Assembly: GCA_035626395.1 (NCBI GenBank)
Contig: DASPNR010000002.1
Location: forward strand, 469,019 to 533,018
Length of the DNA: 64,000 nucleotides
Direction: 5' to 3'
Source of the DNA: Candidatus Limnocylindrales bacterium
GTDB lineage: Bacteria; Desulfobacterota; Binatia; UBA1149; CAITLU01
A program made the translations under genes and the position numbers. Positions 1-9,203 of this stretch are shown here, piece by piece (the first letter of the stretch is position 1; the number at the start of each line of letters is the position of its first letter). The notes beneath the pieces were generated by a model. It saw only the letters and a program-made list of their open reading frames with translations, had not been told where the DNA came from and did not search any database.

Positions 1-276
1 AAGGCCGCAGCCAAAAAGGAAGCCAAGCTGGCGGCCAAGACCGCGCTCAAGGCGGAGCGGCAGGCTCAGCGCGAAGCCGAGAAGAAGGTCCGCGCCGAGG
101 CGAAGGCGCGCAAGAAGGCCGAGCGGGCCGCCGTCGGAAAGAAGCCGCGCCAGGGCAAGACCGGCGGCGCCAAGGATGCGCGCTCCGACAAGCCGCGCCC
201 GGCCAGGCCGCGCGCGGACAAGGCGACGGACGGACGAGATGGCGGCTCGATCCGCGACGCGGGAGGCGATGCGTGA
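1..276 (+). CDS. Partial CDS (C-terminal end), Lys/Ala-rich tail. Its TGA stop overlaps the GTG start of the next gene as GTGA. Possibly the upstream T2SS component (gspL-like), but not recognisable from this fragment.
   Basis: Frame +1 is open from nt 1 to the TGA at 274-276. It translates KAAAKKEAKLAAK...RDAGGDA*. The start/stop overlap with the downstream gspM-like gene suggests translational coupling. Confidence 0.35.
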   Translation, partial: KAAAKKEAKLAAKTALKAERQAQREAEKKVRAEAKARKKAERAAVGKKPRQGKTGGAKDARSDKPRPARPRADKATDGRDGGSIRDAGGDA

Positions 277-827
277 AGCAGTTCCTGCATCAGATCGAGC
301 TGGCGCTTTCGCGGCTGAGCCCGCGCGAGCAGCGGCTGGTCGCCATCTTCGGCGGCCTGCTCGCCGTCGTGGTGGTCTGGTCGTTCCTGCTCGCACCGGT
401 GCTGGCGGGACGCCAGCAGCTTGCCGAAGAGATCGTCACGCTCAGCGAGGACCTCGCCGACCTCGAGAAGCTCAGCCGGCAGATACGCGCGGCGCAGGCC
501 GGCGGCGCCGCCAAGGCGCGGCCGACCGAAAGTGACGCAGGCTTCTCTCTGCTGGCGTTCGTCGACAAGGCAGCGCGCGCATCGCTTCGAGCCGAGTCGA
601 TCGCCGCGATGAGCCCCGGACAGCGTGCGCTCGATCAGGGCCGGCAGGAAAGCATGGTGGAGCTTCGGCTGTCGGCCGTCACGCTGCCGGAGATCGTCGA
701 GCTGCTGCGCAGCATCGAGGACGACGACAGCGCCGTCTACGTCAAGCAGTTCCACATGAAGAAGCGCTACGAGGATCCTTCGCAGTTCGACGTCACGCTG
801 GTAACGGCCACCGTCACGCGCATCTGA
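273..827 (+). CDS. gspM: Type II secretion system protein M-like (GspM/EpsM family): short cytoplasmic N-terminus, single TM, periplasmic domain.
   Basis: 184 aa. The N-terminal motif LSPREQRLV followed by a TM segment (IFGGLLAVVVVWSFLLAPVL) resembles the EpsM/GspM signature TPREQKMV plus TM. It is followed directly by a GspN-like gene. Confidence 0.5.
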   Translation: MKQFLHQIELALSRLSPREQRLVAIFGGLLAVVVVWSFLLAPVLAGRQQLAEEIVTLSEDLADLEKLSRQIRAAQAGGAAKARPTESDAGFSLLAFVDKAARASLRAESIAAMSPGQRALDQGRQESMVELRLSAVTLPEIVELLRSIEDDDSAVYVKQFHMKKRYEDPSQFDVTLVTATVTRI

Positions 828-839
828 TCCGTCCGGCCG

Positions 840-1658
840 ATGCGCATTCTGGCCTTCCTGATCCTGTTCCTGATCTTCGTCGCCGTGACCGCGCCGCTCG
901 AAAAGCTCATCACGCCCTACCTCAGCTCGCTGGCCGCAGCCGGCGTCGACGTGCGCATCGGGAGCGCACGGCTGGCGCTTCCCGCCGGCCTGCGCGTGAG
1001 CGACGTGCGGGCCAGCAGCGAGGACTTCGACTTCGATGTCGGGCTGGACTCTGTCTATGTCGGCATCAACCGCAGTTTCGACATCGACGCCTGCGGCGGC
1101 ACCGTTCGCGGCCGCCTTCAGGGTGACCGCCTGGAGATGTCGATGCGCGGCTTCGACCCGTCACGGTGCCTGCGCATCGGACAGGTGACGCTGGAAAGCC
1201 CCATCGACGGCACCGTCGAGCTCCAGGGCCTGTCCGTCTTCGACCTGCGGCTGCGGCCCGACAGCCGCGCCAGCATCGACCTGCGCTCGGCCGGCGGGAT
1301 CTTCGGCGGGCATCTGCCGTTCATCGGACCGCAGGGACCGACGCTGGTGCCCGTCGGCGACTGGGAGTTCGGCGACGTCGTCATGCGCGGACGGTTCGAG
1401 GGCGGCAGATTGCTGGTCGAGGAAGGCCATGCGCTGACGAGCGGCGTGCAGTGGGAGCTGACGGGCGCCACGCTCAAGCCGGCCGATGGCGATACGGAGG
1501 AGCTGCGCATCGATTTTCGCGCACGCATGGTCGAGGAGTCGCCGCGTGCGAACATGCTGATGGGCCTGTTGCCCAAGGCCACGGCGGACGCCGACGGATG
1601 GCGTCGCTACCGGCTGGTCACGACGGCAGGCGGACCCAAGCTCATCGGTCTGCAGTAG
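840..1658 (+). CDS. gspN: Type II secretion system protein N-like (GspN family), N-terminal TM anchor.
   Basis: 272 aa with an N-terminal hydrophobic anchor (ILAFLILFLIFVAVTAPL). It sits immediately downstream of the gspM-like gene. The call rests on size and architecture only, so the family assignment is tentative. Confidence 0.4.
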   Translation: MRILAFLILFLIFVAVTAPLEKLITPYLSSLAAAGVDVRIGSARLALPAGLRVSDVRASSEDFDFDVGLDSVYVGINRSFDIDACGGTVRGRLQGDRLEMSMRGFDPSRCLRIGQVTLESPIDGTVELQGLSVFDLRLRPDSRASIDLRSAGGIFGGHLPFIGPQGPTLVPVGDWEFGDVVMRGRFEGGRLLVEEGHALTSGVQWELTGATLKPADGDTEELRIDFRARMVEESPRANMLMGLLPKATADADGWRRYRLVTTAGGPKLIGLQ

Positions 1659-2026
1659 CGCGCACGTCCGTCGACCGTCGCCATCGGCCGCGCGCCTCCC
1701 TGTTGTCCCCCGGATACACACACGCGCAGTCATGACACGCCGTATGCAACTTTGCGGCTAAAGAAAGCCGTTGCCATCCCGGCAACCTCGCCCCCACTCA
1801 AGACGAGCGTGCTCGCGATGTGGCCGCTGCACTACGACCGGCCGCGCACAGCCGCTGAGCGTCTCTGACTGCCCAACAACTTTCGCCTGTCGAGTTGCGA
1901 CCGCAGCAGTACGTGGCGGCGGTCGTTGCCCACATCGCGGATCGTACCCGTTGACGGTGACACCACGGCAGACTAGCGCGGGACCTCGACAGGGCTTGTC
2001 ATGCCGCGAGCCCGGAGGGTCTCGTC

Positions 2027-3142
2027 ATGATGGATCGTTTTCCGTGGGCGCGCTCGGCGTGGCGCGATGCGGCTGTGGTGGTCGTGCTGCTCGCTTCTGC
2101 TTCGCCTGTTTCGGCCAGCTGTCCCGAGTTCCGGCGTTTGGCCGAAGCGGCGCTTCCGTCGCAGGTCGGCAACCGTCTGGCTCTCGCCAAGCTGCTCAAC
2201 CCGCCCGTCCATCCGCAGCTGCCGGACTTTCTGGCAGAACCGGCCAACATGCGGCGCACGCTGATCGGCCTTCGCACCGTCGGCCTGAAGCCCGACCGCA
2301 AGAGCTGCGGCCTGAGCAAGGGCAGCCGTCGCTCGGCATCCGCGTCCACCGAGTGCCTGCTGCGCAGCGCCAGGACCGGGGACTCCGGCCGCATCCGTGT
2401 CGCCGAGGGCGAGATCGCGGTCGCCGGCTCGCCGCCGGTGCATGTGGCTTTGCACGGCATCGTCAGCCTCACCAGCGATGCCGCGGTGATCAACACGGCG
2501 CGCGCCGCCGCTCGTTCCTGGGGCGTGCCGGTGGAGGAGATCCAGCGAAGCGATCAGGGGCTGATCGTGCAGCGCCATACCACCGTCTCCGCCCAGCCAT
2601 CCGCTCATGCCGTGCAGGCGCGGGATTCCCCGGTCCGTAGCGTCGCACCGCTCGTCGAGCTGCAGCCGGGGCAGGTTCGTGTGCTCGCCGGCCGGCAGGT
2701 AGCCGGCGTGCCCGTGCTCGGATCGGGGCTGGAGGCCGTGCTGGACGGCGAAGGCCGAATCGTTCGCACCAACATTCGCTGGCCGCGCTTCTGCATCGAC
2801 CCTCAGCTCGTGACCAGGCTGGACGAGAAGCTGGCTGCGCGCCAGCAGGTGATCCAGAAAGTCGTCGACTCGCTGACGGAGAAGAACGCATGCGGCTCGC
2901 TCAGCCGCCTCGGCGCCAGCATTCTCTACGTGCGGTCGGCCTCCGGGCGCTGCTATGTGCCGGCGCTCGCCCTTCATCCCGTGCAGAAGGACGGCGTCAA
3001 CGCCGCCCTGGAAGGCGAGCCGCAGTATCTGATTCCGCTGCTGCGCGAGGATCCGCCAAACGGTCAGGAGAATATCGCGCAGCCGCGCAAGGAAGAACCG
3101 ATGCTGGCGAGCGGCACTACACAGCAGCAGCCGATCAAGTGA
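2027..3142 (+). CDS. Secreted protein of unknown function, paralog A (371 aa) with a Sec signal peptide and six conserved Cys. Paralogous to the CDS at 4471-5595.
   Basis: The signal peptide (AAVVVVLLASASPVSA|SC) is followed by blocks shared with the paralog: SCxxFRxLAEAAxPSxVG, LLNPP, PQLPDFLAxPxNMRR, IRWPRFC, EEVIQKVV, NxCGxLSxL, YVRxS and CYxPALxLH. No known family recognised. Confidence 0.6.
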   Translation: MMDRFPWARSAWRDAAVVVVLLASASPVSASCPEFRRLAEAALPSQVGNRLALAKLLNPPVHPQLPDFLAEPANMRRTLIGLRTVGLKPDRKSCGLSKGSRRSASASTECLLRSARTGDSGRIRVAEGEIAVAGSPPVHVALHGIVSLTSDAAVINTARAAARSWGVPVEEIQRSDQGLIVQRHTTVSAQPSAHAVQARDSPVRSVAPLVELQPGQVRVLAGRQVAGVPVLGSGLEAVLDGEGRIVRTNIRWPRFCIDPQLVTRLDEKLAARQQVIQKVVDSLTEKNACGSLSRLGASILYVRSASGRCYVPALALHPVQKDGVNAALEGEPQYLIPLLREDPPNGQENIAQPRKEEPMLASGTTQQQPIK

Positions 3143-3534
3143 TGAAGAGGATCGCGGCGGATGACCGCACGACGACTCGCGCCGAACGATGCCTGGCGAC
3201 GATGCTCTCCCCCGTCGAGAAAACGGGATCCGCGCGACCGGCACCGCGCGACGGCAGGCACGCACCGACCGTCATCGCATCGGCCGCTCTCGCCCCCACG
3301 CAAGAAGTCGAGTCGTCGTTCCGAGCCGCCTTCGGCTGTTCTTGCGCGGCGCGCCGGCGACGGCGGCGGCTGAAGCCTGCTGAAGTTTCGCTTCGGCCCG
3401 CCCGGCTGTTCCTGCTCCGTTTCGCGATGTCACGTCACGGGATGATTGACGGCAACAGCGCAGCGCAGTAGCCGCGAGCACTGGAGGGGCGCGCATTTTC
3501 GGCGGGCCCGGTGGGTTTCAAGGAGGGTTTGTCC

Positions 3535-4458
3535 ATGACGATCCTGCATCAGTGCGTGCCACGCACGGCGTGGCACGTCCTTCTCGCCATCGCTTCTGTC
3601 TTCGCTTCCGCTTCCCCCGCTCTCGCAAATCATCTCGAAGCGAAGATGTACGGCGTCGACAACTGGGACCTCGACTGTTCGGGCAACAGCCTGAACTGGA
3701 GCGCACAGGTCGACCGCTGGTACAACGAGATGGACGATCACGGCTGGTACACTCGCGACGGTCGCTTCGTCGACACCGGCATGGACCGCAGCCCCTTCTG
3801 CGATCCGGACAGCGGCGCCTCGCCGTGCGTCGACCACAACCGCATGGACGACGGCGACGCCGTGATGGTTTTCTATCACGGCGGTGACAGCGGCAATCAC
3901 TGGCGCGCGCTCGTGCGCAGCGACGGCGGCGCCGCCGTCAACGACTGCTACATCGACTCGCCCGAATCCTCGACGGAAGGCGGCAACGGTGCCGAGCTGT
4001 TCGCCGGCGACATGGACATGGAGTTCCTGCACCTCTCCTCGTGCCAGAGCCTCGACGACGACAACCTCAACCACGCCTGGCGCATGATGCGCGATCCGAT
4101 CGATTCCCCCGCCAGCGGACAGCGCCTGCATCAAGTCGGCGGCTTCCACGGCTGCATGTGGATCGGTTCGAGCTGGCGCGACGACTACGAGGATTTCGCG
4201 GACGATGCCTTCTCGACCTCGATCAAAAACGCATGGCTCGACAACCACTACCGCAACAACGTCGGCGAGGACGACGAGGAGCAATGCCCCGTCGCCATGG
4301 CCATCGGCACCAGTGAGGCCGACTGCTTCAACCGCATAGACAACGAGCGTTACAACAACATCTTCGGCGACCCCGCCGGCAATAACTACTACTGCTACTA
4401 CTTCTTCGACGGCTGTAACCCCGCCTGCGAAGATGCGTTCAACGATCCCAACGACTGA
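3535..4458 (+). CDS. Secreted acidic Cys/Trp/Asp-rich protein of unknown function, about 307 aa if the start is the Met of MTILHQ.
   Basis: ORF 3511-4458. The N-terminal signal is WHVLLAIASVFASASPALA|NH. The mature protein has about 11 Cys, many Asp/Glu and many Trp. It contains a hydrophobic strand plus HG motif (VMVFYHGGDSGNHW) and later GFHGC. The C-terminus is YYCYYFFDGCNPACEDAF. It is flanked by the two paralogous secreted proteins. Confidence 0.5.
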   Translation: MTILHQCVPRTAWHVLLAIASVFASASPALANHLEAKMYGVDNWDLDCSGNSLNWSAQVDRWYNEMDDHGWYTRDGRFVDTGMDRSPFCDPDSGASPCVDHNRMDDGDAVMVFYHGGDSGNHWRALVRSDGGAAVNDCYIDSPESSTEGGNGAELFAGDMDMEFLHLSSCQSLDDDNLNHAWRMMRDPIDSPASGQRLHQVGGFHGCMWIGSSWRDDYEDFADDAFSTSIKNAWLDNHYRNNVGEDDEEQCPVAMAIGTSEADCFNRIDNERYNNIFGDPAGNNYYCYYFFDGCNPACEDAFNDPND

Positions 4459-4470
4459 GGGGAGGAAGCC

Positions 4471-5595
4471 ATGAAGACTGTCGTGACCGTCGCGTTTCTC
4501 TTCTCCGTGGCGCTTCTCGGGTCCGCTCCGGCCGCAGCGCAGCAGAGCTGCGAGGACTTCCGCACGCTCGCCGAAGGCGCCGTTCCATCCACCGTCGGCG
4601 ACCGTAGCGTGATGGACCAGCTCCTGAATCCGCCCATCGCCAAGCCACAGCTTCCCGACTTCCTGGCCGACCCGACGAACATGCGACGAGCCCTCAAGCT
4701 GCTCGGCTCCCGCGGCCTGAGAGCCGACCCGAGCGACTGCAGGTTCGCCGGCAAGCTCCGGAAAGGTGCGGTCGGCCAGGATCCTGGACAGGAGATCGAC
4801 TGCACGCTGCGCAGCCGGCGCGCGAATGAGGCCGCGCGTCTGGATCTCGCCCGAGGCAAGGTCACCTATCTGAATTCGGACCGGAACCACGATGGCGCCG
4901 CGGGCATCGAGAACACGACCAGCGACCAGGACGCCGTCGCGCGCACCATGCAGGCCGCGCTGGCTTGGGGTGTTCCCGGCGAGGAGATCCGCCCGCCGGG
5001 CAACGGCCTGCTGGTTCGTCACTTGATGGCGTCCAGTGTGCCGCTGGTCGACGAGCGGCCGATCACGGAGCAGGCCAAGACGCACACGGCGGAGATTCAC
5101 GTGATCACGGGCCGCCACGTCGGCGGAGTACCGGTCTTCGGATCGCTGCTGAAGACGGCGATCGACGTCAACGGGCAGGTCGCGCGCACGCACATCCGAT
5201 GGCCGCGCTTTTGCCTGGTGCCGGGCCTGCAGCAGAACCTCGACGAGACGCTGATGAGCCGCGAGGAGGTCATCCAGAAGGTCGTCGAAACGCTGGGGGC
5301 GCAGAACAAGTGCGGGACGCTGAGCAAGCTGCGCGCGAACATCATGTACGTGCGCACGTCGCAGGAGTCGGAGGCGGAGGTCAACGACTCGCGCGACGAG
5401 TCGAATACGACGCGCGGCGACGACGATCGCGGCGTCGCCGGCGAGGACCCTGCCGACGGCGGCGAGCCCTGCTACATGCCGGCGCTGACGCTGCACGCAT
5501 TTCCAAATGAGCCGGAACCGGACAGCGGACAGATCGGCATGGGGGCGCCGGAGTACGTCGTGCCCTTGATCCGGGCGGATCCGACACGGGGGTAA
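4471..5595 (+). CDS. Secreted protein of unknown function, paralog B (374 aa), with an extra acidic insertion (SQESEAEVNDSRDESNTTRGDDDRGVAGEDPADGGEP).
   Basis: Signal peptide MKTVVTVAFLFSVALLGSAPAAA|QQSC. It is roughly 50% identical to the 2027-3142 product across the full length, with the same six Cys positions. Confidence 0.65.
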   Translation: MKTVVTVAFLFSVALLGSAPAAAQQSCEDFRTLAEGAVPSTVGDRSVMDQLLNPPIAKPQLPDFLADPTNMRRALKLLGSRGLRADPSDCRFAGKLRKGAVGQDPGQEIDCTLRSRRANEAARLDLARGKVTYLNSDRNHDGAAGIENTTSDQDAVARTMQAALAWGVPGEEIRPPGNGLLVRHLMASSVPLVDERPITEQAKTHTAEIHVITGRHVGGVPVFGSLLKTAIDVNGQVARTHIRWPRFCLVPGLQQNLDETLMSREEVIQKVVETLGAQNKCGTLSKLRANIMYVRTSQESEAEVNDSRDESNTTRGDDDRGVAGEDPADGGEPCYMPALTLHAFPNEPEPDSGQIGMGAPEYVVPLIRADPTRG

Positions 5596-5721
5596 TTCAG
5601 GCGGATCCGCCGCCGAGCGCGCCAGGAGCGGCCGAGGAGGAGAGCGGTGCTTCTGGCGCGCGGTCGGCCTGGGGCGGCGCGAATCGGCACGGCCGATGCA
5701 GCCGCGTGCAGCGCACCGCGC

Positions 5722-7011
5722 TCAAACACCGGCGACATTTCCTACGCGCTCGGCAATCGCCCGCACCATCGCCACGTTGTGCGAATGCCCGGTCTTGCGC
5801 GCGTGGATGTGCGCCCGGATCGGCGCGCCCAGCAGATAGAAGTCGCCCAGGATGTCGAGGATCTTGTGGCGGGCCAGCTCCTCGGGAAAGCGCAGCTCGG
5901 TGTTCACGATGCCGGTCTCGCCGATGAGGATGAAGTTGCTGAGCTGACCGCCCTGCCCCAGCCCCGCGCTCTCCAAAGCCCGAATCTCGTCGACGAAGCC
6001 GAATGTTCTGGCGGGCGCGATCTCGCGCTTGAAGTCCTCGACGCTGCGCATCTCGAAGGTGTAGGTCTGATCGCCGATCGGCGCCGGGTAGGACAGCTCG
6101 TAGGTGATGCGAAGGCCGTCGTAAGGCCGCACCGACAGGAACTGCCCCGGCGCCGGATCGATTCGGATCTCTTCGAGCAGCCCGACCGCGGCAATGTGCG
6201 AGTCCTGCTCTTCGATCCCGGCCTGCTCGACCAGCTCGCACAGCTCGACGGCCGAGCCGTCGAGGATCGGCACTTCGCCTTCGATCTTCACCAGCAGGTT
6301 GGTGATGCCGTAAGCATGCAGCGTGGCCATCAGGTGCTCGACCGTGCGCACCGCCAGACCCTTCTTGTACAGGGTGGTCGCGTAGCCGGTGGAATCGACG
6401 TTCCCGACGACGGCTTCGACCTCGCCGCCACCGGAGACGCTGCTGAAGACGATGCCGCTGCCGGGCGGCATCGGATGCAGGATGATGCCGGTGCGCACCC
6501 CGCTGTGCAGGCCCAGACCGGCGCCGACCACCGAGCGCGCCACCGTGCATTCGCGGACTCGCGGCTCCCAGGCCGCGCCGGATCGCGCAAGCGACGCGAC
6601 GGCCTGTGCCGCGCGCGCCGCCTCACGCTTGCGGCCTCGATCCAGCGCGTTGCCGACCGCATCGACGAGCGCCTCGATGCTGAAGGGCTTCTCGATGAAG
6701 TCGGCCGCGCCGAGCTTGGTCGCGCGCACGGCCGTTTCGATGCTCCCGTGTCCCGAGATCACGATCACCGGAAGGCGCGCGTGCTCGTGCTTGAGCTTCT
6801 CGAGCACCTGGATGCCGTCCATGCCCGGAAGCCACACATCCAGCAGCACCAGGTCCGGACACTGCACGCGCGCCGCGGCCAGCGCCTCCAGGCCGTCGCG
6901 CGCATAACGGACGCGGAAGCCCTCGTCCGTCAGCACCGCGCCGATGGTGTCGCGAACGGTGGAGTCGTCGTCGACGACGAGGATGCTGCGATACACCGGC
7001 GCTGCCCTCAT
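5722..7011 (-). CDS. lpxC: Response-regulator receiver domain fused to UDP-3-O-acyl-N-acetylglucosamine deacetylase (REC-LpxC).
   Basis: 429 aa. The N-terminal roughly 120 aa is a complete REC domain: acidic pocket VVDDDS, phospho-acceptor Asp in LVLLDVWLPGMDG, IVISGHG, and the conserved Lys in FIEKPF. After a linker the sequence aligns along its full length to E. coli LpxC (GLGLHSGVRTGIILHP, RTVEHLMATL, ILDGSA, ARTFGFVDEI, HKILDILGD, HARKTGHSHN). The Zn-ligand His/Asp positions are conserved. The ATG start overlaps the stop of the upstream kinase as ATGA. Confidence 0.85.
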   Translation of the reverse strand: MRAAPVYRSILVVDDDSTVRDTIGAVLTDEGFRVRYARDGLEALAAARVQCPDLVLLDVWLPGMDGIQVLEKLKHEHARLPVIVISGHGSIETAVRATKLGAADFIEKPFSIEALVDAVGNALDRGRKREAARAAQAVASLARSGAAWEPRVRECTVARSVVGAGLGLHSGVRTGIILHPMPPGSGIVFSSVSGGGEVEAVVGNVDSTGYATTLYKKGLAVRTVEHLMATLHAYGITNLLVKIEGEVPILDGSAVELCELVEQAGIEEQDSHIAAVGLLEEIRIDPAPGQFLSVRPYDGLRITYELSYPAPIGDQTYTFEMRSVEDFKREIAPARTFGFVDEIRALESAGLGQGGQLSNFILIGETGIVNTELRFPEELARHKILDILGDFYLLGAPIRAHIHARKTGHSHNVAMVRAIAERVGNVAGV

Positions 7012-9203
7012 GCCCGATGCTGGCCGGACGAAGCCGGGAACTCAATCACGAAGCGCGTTCCCTGCGGCTGATTGGGGCGCACGCGCAGGTAGGCGTGATG
7101 GTCGGCGGCCATCGAGGCGACGATCGCCAGGCCGAGGCCGGTGCCTTCGGGCTTGGTGGAGAAATACGGCTCGAAGATGCGCGAGCGCGACGACGCGGGA
7201 ATGCCGGGGCCGGTGTCGCCAACCTCGAGCACGACCCGCGAAAGATCGGCGTCGTGACGCGTGGTGACCTCGATCGCCCGCGGCGAGCCATTGTTCGAGG
7301 AGACCGCCGAGACGGCGTTGTCGAGCAGATTCATCAGCGAACGCTTGACCGCATCGCGATTGATGCGCACCGGCGGCAGGTCCGTGCCGGCGTGGAAGCT
7401 GAGCGAAATGTCGGGGCGCGACTGGCGGTACAGCGGCAGCGTCTCCTCGACCAGCGGGTTGAGGTCCTGCACCGTCTTGTCGGCGCTGGCGGACTGGGCG
7501 AATTGCGAGAACTCGTTGACGAGCTGCTTGAGGCCGTCGACCTCGTTGACGATGGTGGCCACGCACTCCCGCACCAGCTCGGCATCGCCGCCCGGGAGTT
7601 GCGTGCTCAGGCGCCGGCCCAGGCGCTGCGCGCTCAGCTGGATCGGCGTAAGGGGATTCTTGATCTCGTGCGCGACGCGGCGCGCGACCTCGCGCCAGGC
7701 CTCCATGCGCTGGATCTCCTGGATCTGCGAGACGTCCTCGAAGAACAGCACCGAGCCCATCGGCTCGGCGCGGCCGCGGCGCAGGTTGGCGGCGGTCACC
7801 AGCAGCGTGCGCTCCTGATCGAGCAGCTTGACGTTGATGCCGCTGCCCGGGACCAGCCGTCCCAGCTGCACCTCGCGCAGCATCGTGACGACCTCGCCGA
7901 AGCCTGCCTCCTCGAACACCTCCTCGGCGCTGCGTCCGACGCTGCTCTGCTCGCGCAGACCCAGGAGCTGGAGCGCCGCCGGGTTGATCGTGCCGATGCG
8001 GCCGTCGGGGCCGATGGAGACGACGCCGGCGGCGATGTTGGCCAGCACGTTCTCGATGTACAGCCGCCGCTCCTCCAGCGCGTCGCGGCTGCGCTTGAGC
8101 TCGGCGGTCATGGCGTTGAACGATCGCACCAGCGTGGCCACCTCGTCGCCGCCCTCCTCGGGCAGCGCCACGTCCAGGTGCCCGGCCGCGACCTCGCGCG
8201 TCGCTTCGGCCAGATGTCCGATCGGATCGGTGATCCCACGCGCCATGTAGAGGCCGAGCCAGGTGGCCGAGAACACGACGACGAGCGAGGCCAGCAGCAT
8301 CGTCATCAGATAGATGTTCTTGAACGGCTGCTTGTTGAGCTTGAGGCGGCGGAACTCGCGGAAGGAGTCGAGAATCTGCGCGGCCCACGCCCGCGGGCTT
8401 TCGCCGATCACCTTCTCGACGATGACGACGCCGAGCAGGCTCTCGTCGCCGCCGCGAATGGGCGCGGAGCCGCGGATGATGTCCGTCGTTTCCTGGCTGT
8501 CCACGCGCGTGAGCACCTCGCCGCGGCGCGCCGCCGCCAGCATCTCCTCCTCGCCATGCAGCGGATTGACGTTCGCCGATTCGGCCGCGCCAACGACCAC
8601 CATCGGTTTGCCATTGGCATCCAGGACCTCGATGCGCGCCAGCCCATGCACCTGCTGCTCGGCGCTGAGGCGTGCCCGCAGGCCCTCCTTCTTGTTGCGG
8701 TCGATGAGACCGCCCTGCGAGATGTCGCGCGAGAGCGCCCGCGCATGCGCCACCGCATCATCGGCGGCGTCGCGATAGTAGGAGCGCGCCATGCCGTAGG
8801 CGCCGTCGAGAGCTTCTTCGACTTCGGTGCCCAGCCAGTCGTCGATGCCGTTGGCGACGAACTGATACGACATGATCACCATCACGACCGCAGGGAACAG
8901 CGCGATCGTGACGAAGGCCAGCACCATCGAGGTCCGAAGGTGGCTTCCCATGATGCCGCGGCGGCGCTCGAGCAGCAGCCGCAGCACGTTGCGCACCGTC
9001 AGAAAGGCGACCAGCAACAGCAGGACGATGTTGAGATTGACGAGCAGGAACGAGAGGACGTTGCCGGCCGCGCCCCGCGTCTCGGGATTGCCGATCTCCC
9101 AGATCGCGAAGGCGGCCACGGCCACGCCCGCGGCCACCACCGTCCACATCTCGCGGCGGCGGCGGCGCTGCTCGGAAGTTGGCTCGTTGCCGCCGTTGCT
9201 CAT
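7008..9203 (-). CDS. NtrY-like membrane sensor histidine kinase (TM segments, HAMP, PAS, HisKA, HATPase_c).
   Basis: 731 aa. It has N-terminal TM helices, a second TM followed by a HAMP-like region, and a PAS-like segment (NIAAGVVSIGPDGRIGTINPAA). The H-box is HEIKNPLTPI, the N-box is LMNLLDNAV and the G-boxes are DTGPGI and GTGLGLAIV. The stop overlaps the REC-LpxC start. Confidence 0.85.
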   Translation of the reverse strand: MSNGGNEPTSEQRRRRREMWTVVAAGVAVAAFAIWEIGNPETRGAAGNVLSFLLVNLNIVLLLLVAFLTVRNVLRLLLERRRGIMGSHLRTSMVLAFVTIALFPAVVMVIMSYQFVANGIDDWLGTEVEEALDGAYGMARSYYRDAADDAVAHARALSRDISQGGLIDRNKKEGLRARLSAEQQVHGLARIEVLDANGKPMVVVGAAESANVNPLHGEEEMLAAARRGEVLTRVDSQETTDIIRGSAPIRGGDESLLGVVIVEKVIGESPRAWAAQILDSFREFRRLKLNKQPFKNIYLMTMLLASLVVVFSATWLGLYMARGITDPIGHLAEATREVAAGHLDVALPEEGGDEVATLVRSFNAMTAELKRSRDALEERRLYIENVLANIAAGVVSIGPDGRIGTINPAALQLLGLREQSSVGRSAEEVFEEAGFGEVVTMLREVQLGRLVPGSGINVKLLDQERTLLVTAANLRRGRAEPMGSVLFFEDVSQIQEIQRMEAWREVARRVAHEIKNPLTPIQLSAQRLGRRLSTQLPGGDAELVRECVATIVNEVDGLKQLVNEFSQFAQSASADKTVQDLNPLVEETLPLYRQSRPDISLSFHAGTDLPPVRINRDAVKRSLMNLLDNAVSAVSSNNGSPRAIEVTTRHDADLSRVVLEVGDTGPGIPASSRSRIFEPYFSTKPEGTGLGLAIVASMAADHHAYLRVRPNQPQGTRFVIEFPASSGQHRA

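Follow-up and report, generated by a model that had tools for sequence, protein, structure and literature searches.

In thermolysin and fungalysin zymogens, the FTP/PepSY fold serves as both an intramolecular chaperone and an inhibitor. The PepSY domains of YpeB are chaperone-inhibitors of SleB, an enzyme encoded in the same operon (PMC13556211). The locus analyzed here lies in a 64,000-nucleotide (nt) stretch of contig DASPNR010000002.1 (hereafter the window, on which all positions are counted; GC content 68%) and comprises three consecutive open reading frames (ORFs) on the plus strand, A (2027-3142, 371 aa), B (3511-4458, 315 aa) and C (4471-5595, 374 aa). An earlier note on this DNA had described them as a triad of signal-peptide proteins without a recognizable family, in which two paralogs flank an acidic protein directly downstream of gspM-gspN, and had proposed a connection with the type II secretion system (T2SS). 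Our analysis shows that the conserved unit is a two-gene B-C pair and not the triad. We propose, with about as much confidence as doubt, that B is an exported clan CD cysteine peptidase with C as its cognate, prodomain-like partner, which would act in trans as a foldase, a latency factor or both.

The earlier view of B as a protein without a family did not hold, since B matches Pfam DUF6345 (PF19872) with 31.7 bits, above the gathering cutoff of 26.9, and has more than 220 homologs, most of them carrying a precomputed PF19872 annotation. DUF6345 proteins occur in Binatia, Acidobacteriota, Gamma- and Betaproteobacteria, Planctomycetota, Nitrospirota, Verrucomicrobiota, Gemmatimonadota and other groups, and cultivable carriers include Marinibactrum halimedae, Marimonas arenosa and Pseudoalteromonas sp. 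NBT06-2; no study of their function was found in the literature that we searched. NCBIfam gave no match for A, B or C, and sequence searches of the PDB with single sequences and with profiles returned nothing meaningful. Translation of B most likely starts at the ATG at 3535, with AAGGAGG 8 nt upstream, giving a protein of 307 aa in agreement with the NCBI gene call; residue numbers used here count from the GTG at 3511. The mature protein is as acidic and as rich in Cys and Trp as had been noticed, with an isoelectric point (pI) of 4.13, 11 Cys, 9 Trp and 41 Asp.

The AlphaFold2 model of B (predicted local distance difference test score, pLDDT, 93; predicted template modeling score, pTM, 0.87) is an alpha/beta/alpha sandwich with a caspase-type central sheet, the predicted caspase-hemoglobinase fold of clan CD. 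Members of this clan are recognized by a catalytic dyad in which the His, followed by a conserved Gly, and then the Cys each stand at the C-terminal end of one of two consecutive central strands (PMC4357240). In the model, His123-Gly124 directly follows the hydrophobic strand 117-121 and Ser177-Cys178 the hydrophobic strand 172-176, and across 93 sequences His123, Gly124 and Ser177 are conserved at 100% and Cys178 at 99%, so that conservation and predicted strands together put the dyad where clan CD enzymes carry it. Identity to solved clan CD families is 6-13%, with no close resemblance to any of them. The model and the conserved residues show a clan CD cysteine peptidase fold with an intact His/Cys dyad, and B is predicted to be proteolytically active. 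The remaining Cys residues point the same way. C56, C146, C259 and C302 are invariant in the 93 sequences, C97/C106 and C272/C295 are each present in 61-62 of them (about 66%), and C215/C306 are each present in 24%. Because these ten Cys are either conserved or co-occur as pairs, Cys178 is the odd one out, a pattern that would fit an exported enzyme with five disulfides and one free catalytic thiol. Acidic residues near the dyad (D113, D116, D182 and D183) may hint, and only hint, at a preference for a basic P1 residue.

C belongs with A to a previously undescribed family of 158 representatives, 72 of them below E 1e-10, which became visible only by exhaustive profile search; a word-indexed homolog search turned up no more than one or two relatives for either protein. 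What stands of the claim that these proteins lack a family is that A and C have no Pfam or NCBIfam match at threshold, yet their family is a real one. The AlphaFold2 model of C has a pLDDT of 85, with disorder confined to an acidic insert at residues 300-328. This low-complexity insert (residues 297-333, window 5359-5469; pLDDT below 50) varies across the family and is missing in A; it lowers the pI of mature C from 7.8 to 5.4. The top three Foldseek matches to C are all to two FTP-PepSY propeptides, those of vibriolysin MCP-02 (3nqz_A) and fungalysin (4k90_B), at probabilities of 0.98-0.99, and the fold also resembles YpeB, YycH and YycI. Sub-threshold matches to Pfam FTP occur in 18 of 63 family members, all at the place equivalent to C residues ∼200-240, and DUF4901 matches occur in 6 of 63. 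The gathering cutoff of FTP (PF07504), 21 bits, was not reached among ten members scanned singly, the best scoring 17.3 bits; neither FTP nor PepSY matched A or C, and PepSY (PF03413) matched none of the family members scanned. The similarity is therefore structural, and the model shows C as a tandem FTP/PepSY-like protein of the propeptide-like fold class. At every one of the 25 columns with a conservation of 80% or more, C has the consensus residue of its family, those of a YxNxxR loop (YLNSDR in C) among them. The partner family evolves faster than the enzyme, with a mean column identity of 23% as against 41%, and propeptides and inhibitors typically evolve fast.

Linkage between the two families is near-obligate. 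We compared 67 genomes, from different species, each with a gene for a B-like protein. In 63 of them the ORF immediately downstream of DUF6345, on its strand, matches the partner-family hidden Markov model (HMM), and in L024, L034 and L042 the downstream ORF is a diverged partner (hhalign probability 98.6%, E 8e-16), which brings the total to 66 of 67. Between the DUF6345 stop codon and the partner start codon lies an estimated median distance of ∼24 nt, and no more than 66 nt at 61 of 62 loci. Metagenomic contigs carry the same pair among unrelated neighbors, and in six representative proteins (P0191, P0208, P0228, P0232, P0263 and P0249) a full DUF6345 domain and the partner core are fused. 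Five of these fusions (P0191, P0208, P0228, P0232 and P0263; 676-808 aa) consist of DUF6345, the partner core, calcium-binding thrombospondin type 3 (TSP_3) repeats and a C-terminal domain of ∼150 aa. A second, upstream partner paralog was found at none of the 67 related loci, and the layout of paralog, effector and paralog that the earlier note had taken for a functional unit is thus not maintained.

The accompanying suggestion of an enzyme/inhibitor or toxin/chaperone-like arrangement does fit the reduced unit, given the peptidase fold and dyad of B, the propeptide-like fold of C and their adjacency. In the mechanism that we propose, B and C would form a self-contained two-gene operon. B would be an exported, disulfide-rich and very acidic peptidase of the caspase/gingipain/clostripain fold that uses His123 and Cys178. 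C, exported alongside it, would act in trans as a prodomain that binds B in the periplasm and helps it to fold and/or keeps it latent until C is degraded or the complex comes apart by release. We infer that the two proteins bind physically, and that C then acts on B as a chaperone or as an inhibitor.

Two observations weigh against a propeptide-like role for C. PepSY- and YycH-like folds serve non-inhibitory functions too, and in the fusions the partner core lies C-terminal to the protease, opposite to the N-terminal propeptides of M4 and M36 enzymes. Nor is C a propeptide in the strict sense of a segment that is covalently joined N-terminal to its protease and removed on activation, since it is encoded by a separate downstream gene and sits at the C-terminal side when fused. 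The same observations would suit a different role, in which C would assist the protease as a non-catalytic accessory module, for example in substrate recognition, cell-surface anchoring or oligomerization; it would be comparable to the immunoglobulin-like and adhesin domains that follow gingipain catalytic domains, but split off as its own polypeptide. The order of parts in the fusions, from catalytic domain through partner core and TSP_3 repeats to further C-terminal sequence, is typical of surface or adhesive proteases, and the diversity of roles among PepSY/YycH-like folds leaves room for such a module. We nevertheless regard it as unlikely: the closest solved folds of known function are protease propeptides and YpeB, which are inhibitors or chaperones, the partner evolves much faster than the enzyme, and C has a predicted cleavable signal peptide and no anchor motif.

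In 13 of the 67 genomes, all of them Gamma- or Betaproteobacteria, the pair is followed by a third co-directional gene. Its products (∼250-295 aa) form one family, each having a signal peptide along with a C-terminal sorting tail of the PEP-CTERM type; examples are L019:10111-10857, L053:9975-10850, L075:9952-10824 and L038:10162-10947, and there are nine others. This gene is the only recurrent neighbor of the pair and is absent from the window. Judging from its sorting tail, its product could be a dedicated substrate, and this would be in keeping with B as a transpeptidase or processing enzyme, comparable to glycosylphosphatidylinositol (GPI) transamidase, legumain-type ligases or the sortase PorU of type IX secretion systems (T9SS), that acts on specific envelope or surface proteins with C as scaffold or first substrate. 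We give this idea little credence. The third gene is missing from most loci as well as from the window, exosortase is the accepted enzyme for PEP-CTERM processing, and evidence at this level does not separate a ligase from a hydrolase.

The position of the locus behind gsp genes has to be weighed against this background, and its features are as follows.

1-276, plus strand: 3′ end of gspL (phmmer against the 621-aa GspL-like protein of L008, E 1e-44); its stop codon overlaps the gspM start.
273-827, plus strand: gspM (Pfam T2SSM, E 1.1e-11, 45.7 bits against a cutoff of 27.8).
840-1658, plus strand: gspN, the final gene of the gsp operon (NCBIfam TIGR04411, T2SS_GspN_Lepto, 57.9 bits against a cutoff of 50).
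1659-2026, plus strand: intergenic region 5′ of A, 369 nt, with the 17-mer CTCGCCCCCACTCAAGA at 1787-1803 and TTGACGG-N16-TAGC at 1951-1978.
2027-3142, plus strand: gene A, a diverged extra paralog of the partner family; signal peptide 2027-2116, six Cys, acidic insert absent.
3143-3534, plus strand: intergenic region 5′ of B, with CTCGCCCCCACGCAAGA at 3289-3305, TTGACGG-N16-TAGC at 3446-3473 and the Shine-Dalgarno sequence AAGGAGG at ∼3520-3526.
3535-4458, plus strand: gene B, DUF6345, predicted exported clan CD cysteine peptidase; signal peptide 3535-3627, His123-Gly124 codons 3877-3882, Ser177-Cys178 codons 4039-4044.
4471-5595, plus strand: gene C, the cognate partner, a predicted tandem FTP/PepSY-like alpha/beta protein; signal peptide 4471-4539, YLNSDR loop 4867-4884.
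5068-5211 and 5359-5469, plus strand: FTP-like hairpin region and disordered acidic insert of gene C.

The gsp operon continues 5′ past the window edge with gspG-L, as seen in L008 and L076, so that the full operon is gspG-N. The three ORFs are consecutive genes on one strand, as had been reported, and their GC content at the third codon position (GC3, 0.82-0.86) is typical of genes in the window. The N-termini of A, B and C are Sec-type by inspection, with AxA-like cleavage sites (VSA|S, ALA|N and AAA|Q), which upholds the claim of signal peptides on all three and predicts their export; neither a lipobox nor a twin-arginine (Tat) motif was seen on inspection of the three proteins. Placement directly downstream of gspM-gspN is correct in that both genes lie upstream on the same strand, but 369 nt lie between gspN and A and another 392 nt between A and B. 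Tight linkage is confined to B and C, which are 12 nt apart with a Shine-Dalgarno sequence inside the gap.

B as an effector of the adjacent type II system, with the flanking paralogs as chaperones or immunity proteins, would explain the Sec-type signal peptides, the common strand, the recurrence of an A-type gene after gspN in a second genome, and the upstream sequence elements that A and B have in common. T2SS substrates carry no recognizable sequence signal. With GspG-N of this organism as phmmer queries, no GspJ, K, L, M or N homolog was found at the 67 loci with 8-kb flanks, where there were two weak pilin-like matches only, and a survey of Pfam families in the 123 genes that directly flank the pair showed no T2SS family and nothing conserved. 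Around the pair in the closest relatives (L009, L010, L011 and L001) the neighbors are unrelated. The absence of a second paralog at related loci and the two long gaps further argue against a T2SS-linked triad, as does the occurrence of the A-type gene without B-C in L076, a relative so close that the shared synteny carries little weight. We consider such a triad improbable; the proximity to gsp genes that it would predict in relatives is not seen, and a T2SS link for B-C is not supported. Conserved gsp linkage is confined to A, in the sole other genome that carries it. The gsp-adjacent position of the pair would then be an accident of where genes sit in this Binatia-like lineage, and our results correct the tempting inference of T2SS cargo merely from adjacency to gsp genes.

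Gene A calls for separate treatment. That A and C are paralogs with six conserved Cys is confirmed (38% identity over 373 columns, E 3e-76, six Cys aligned), and A matches the partner-family HMM with E 4e-67. The long blocks that had been quoted as identical are present in both proteins, except that EEVIQKVV reads QQVIQKVV in A. Mature A is basic (pI 9.76) and departs from the family consensus at 5 of the 25 highly conserved columns, including Y133V, N135G and R138P, so that the YxNxxR loop is gone; Arg138 is near-invariant in the partner family. Its sole orthologue, P0127, is 51% identical and comes from a Candidatus Binatia metagenome-assembled genome (MAG), L076, in which gspE-F-G-H-I-J-K-L-M-N and the A-type gene are followed immediately by the genes for an LpxC protein with a response-regulator receiver domain (REC-LpxC), an NtrY-like kinase and ruvBAC, as in the window. 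The B-C pair is absent between gspN and REC-LpxC in L076, and window 3143-5721, which holds B-C and its upstream region, is therefore an insertion or deletion relative to that genome. Proteins encoded by flanking genes are 75-93% identical between the two, which makes the genomes close relatives, makes the shared position of A after gspN weak evidence, and makes A an unusually fast-evolving gene. Since L076 has the A-type gene without B-C, A does not need B.

A is probably a neofunctionalized or decaying copy outside the conserved machine; it would be a lineage-specific, fast-evolving duplicate of C that has its own upstream region, has lost the loop motif and has become basic. Decay without any function of its own would account for the departures from consensus, near-invariant Arg138 among them, and for an identity to the orthologue well below that of neighboring genes. 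We think this doubtful, though worth keeping in view, because the ORF is intact in two genomes, with a GC3 of 0.82, a good Shine-Dalgarno sequence and a signal peptide, because all six Cys and the five invariant family residues are retained, and because A persists in L076 after the loss of B-C or from before its arrival.

The origin of A may be reflected in the regions upstream of A and B. The 17-mers listed above are identical at 16 of 17 positions (pattern CTCGCCCCCAC[T/G]CAAGA) and lie at similar distances from the start codons, at -240 for A and -246 for B, and TTGACGG-N16-TAGC stands in front of both genes, at -76 and -89. Both elements recur 5′ of the A-type gene in L076. The signal peptides of A and B are alike (R[ST]AW...ASASPxxA), and that of C is different. 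Homology between the two upstream regions is weak by alignment (global alignment z 2.3; local p about 0.06; shared 8-mers p about 0.03), so that a duplicated promoter and signal peptide are suggested by these sequences but not established. A could stem from a duplicated B-C cassette that lost B, a derivation to which the weak alignment statistics (p about 0.03-0.06) apply as well.

Scans of the region called no sigma-70 consensus promoter and found no terminator above background, and an Rfam scan of 1500-5800 gave no match. A 7-bp perfect hairpin, GTTGCCatcccGGCAAC, lies after gspN at 1770-1786; its T-run is on the minus strand only, and it thus scores as a minus-strand terminator, though no minus-strand gene lies 5′ of it. 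Sigma-54-type matches (TGGTAT-N5-TTGC and TGGTAC-N5-TTGC) occur upstream of DUF6345 in L009 (∼7840-7855), L010 (∼7830-7845) and L041. The window has no such sigma-54-like promoter, unlike these closest relatives, L009 and L010, and the one other locus.

Downstream of C, on the minus strand, lies the gene for LpxC with an N-terminal receiver domain (5722-7011; Pfam Response_reg 7.6e-32 and LpxC 8.8e-80), which overlaps by 4 nt the gene for an NtrY-like HAMP/PAS histidine kinase (7008-9203, minus strand). The two are kept together in L076, a second Binatia genome, at 88-92% identity. LpxC catalyzes the committed step of lipid A synthesis, and our literature search found no paper on a REC-LpxC fusion. 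We rejected a link between the triad and these genes, as they are not conserved beside the pair elsewhere. The source MAG is labeled 'Candidatus Limnocylindrales' (Chloroflexota) by NCBI, a label that looks doubtful because the window encodes LpxC and a full T2SS and because, for these genes, MAGs of Candidatus Binatia (L010 and L076) are the nearest relatives.

A more far-reaching scheme joins these threads. DUF6345 and its partner would be an ancient two-gene zymogen, spread over more than 10 bacterial phyla, and the first case of an FTP/PepSY chaperone-inhibitor acting on a caspase-fold cysteine protease instead of a metalloprotease or cell-wall hydrolase. A, which is basic, lacks the putative inhibitory-loop motif, would have its own promoter and in two genomes closes off the gsp operon, would be a specialized escort that hands the acidic protease to the T2SS. 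This is a long shot. The more modest reading of B and C as peptidase and partner already has consequences: once DUF6345, a domain of unknown function, is placed in clan CD with its dyad intact, it has a function that can be tested, and the near-obligate pairing suggests a general strategy for the control of exported cysteine proteases, through a regulator with a gene of its own.

In the literature that we searched, we found no earlier description of a caspase-fold cysteine peptidase paired with an FTP/PepSY-like protein from a separate gene, and each of the closest known systems resembles the B-C pair in part. T2SS substrates encoded beside gsp operons are like A, B and C in their Sec signals, many disulfides and, in this genome, adjacency to a complete gsp operon; B-C is linked to gsp in none of the 67 other genomes. 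PrtH/FDF of Tannerella forsythia (MEROPS C84) is a cysteine protease secreted by a bacterium, for which a caspase-like fold is predicted and no structure has been solved (PMC3925233, PMC4357240), and vesicles of that species contain a DUF6345 protein of 536 aa and 60 kDa (PMC10682907). DUF6345 and C84 may overlap, the 60-kDa protein being the sole lead; it is larger than B and differs in architecture, and PrtH has no described partner gene. The gingipain zymogens (MEROPS C25), exemplified by the RgpB prodomain-catalytic complex (PDB 4ief), would offer a functional parallel by analogy. B is 9% identical to gingipain, with no detectable sequence similarity, and lacks the T9SS C-terminal domain, and the gingipain prodomain is N-terminal, covalent and of another fold, whereas C is a separate gene product with an FTP/PepSY-like fold. 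Two methods agree on the M4/M36 FTP-PepSY propeptides (3nqz_A and 4k90_B) as the best fold matches for C that have an annotated function, and these propeptides act as chaperone and inhibitor of a secreted protease; they are N-terminal parts of the same polypeptide as a zinc metalloprotease, whereas C is a stand-alone protein of 350 aa paired with a cysteine peptidase. SleB-YpeB of Bacillus combines an enzyme and a PepSY chaperone-inhibitor in one operon, as we propose for B-C, but SleB is a lytic transglycosylase and not a protease, YpeB is membrane-anchored and restricted to spore formers, and neither has sequence homology to B or C. If our proposal is correct, the PepSY/FTP chaperone-inhibitor principle extends beyond metalloproteases and SleB-YpeB.

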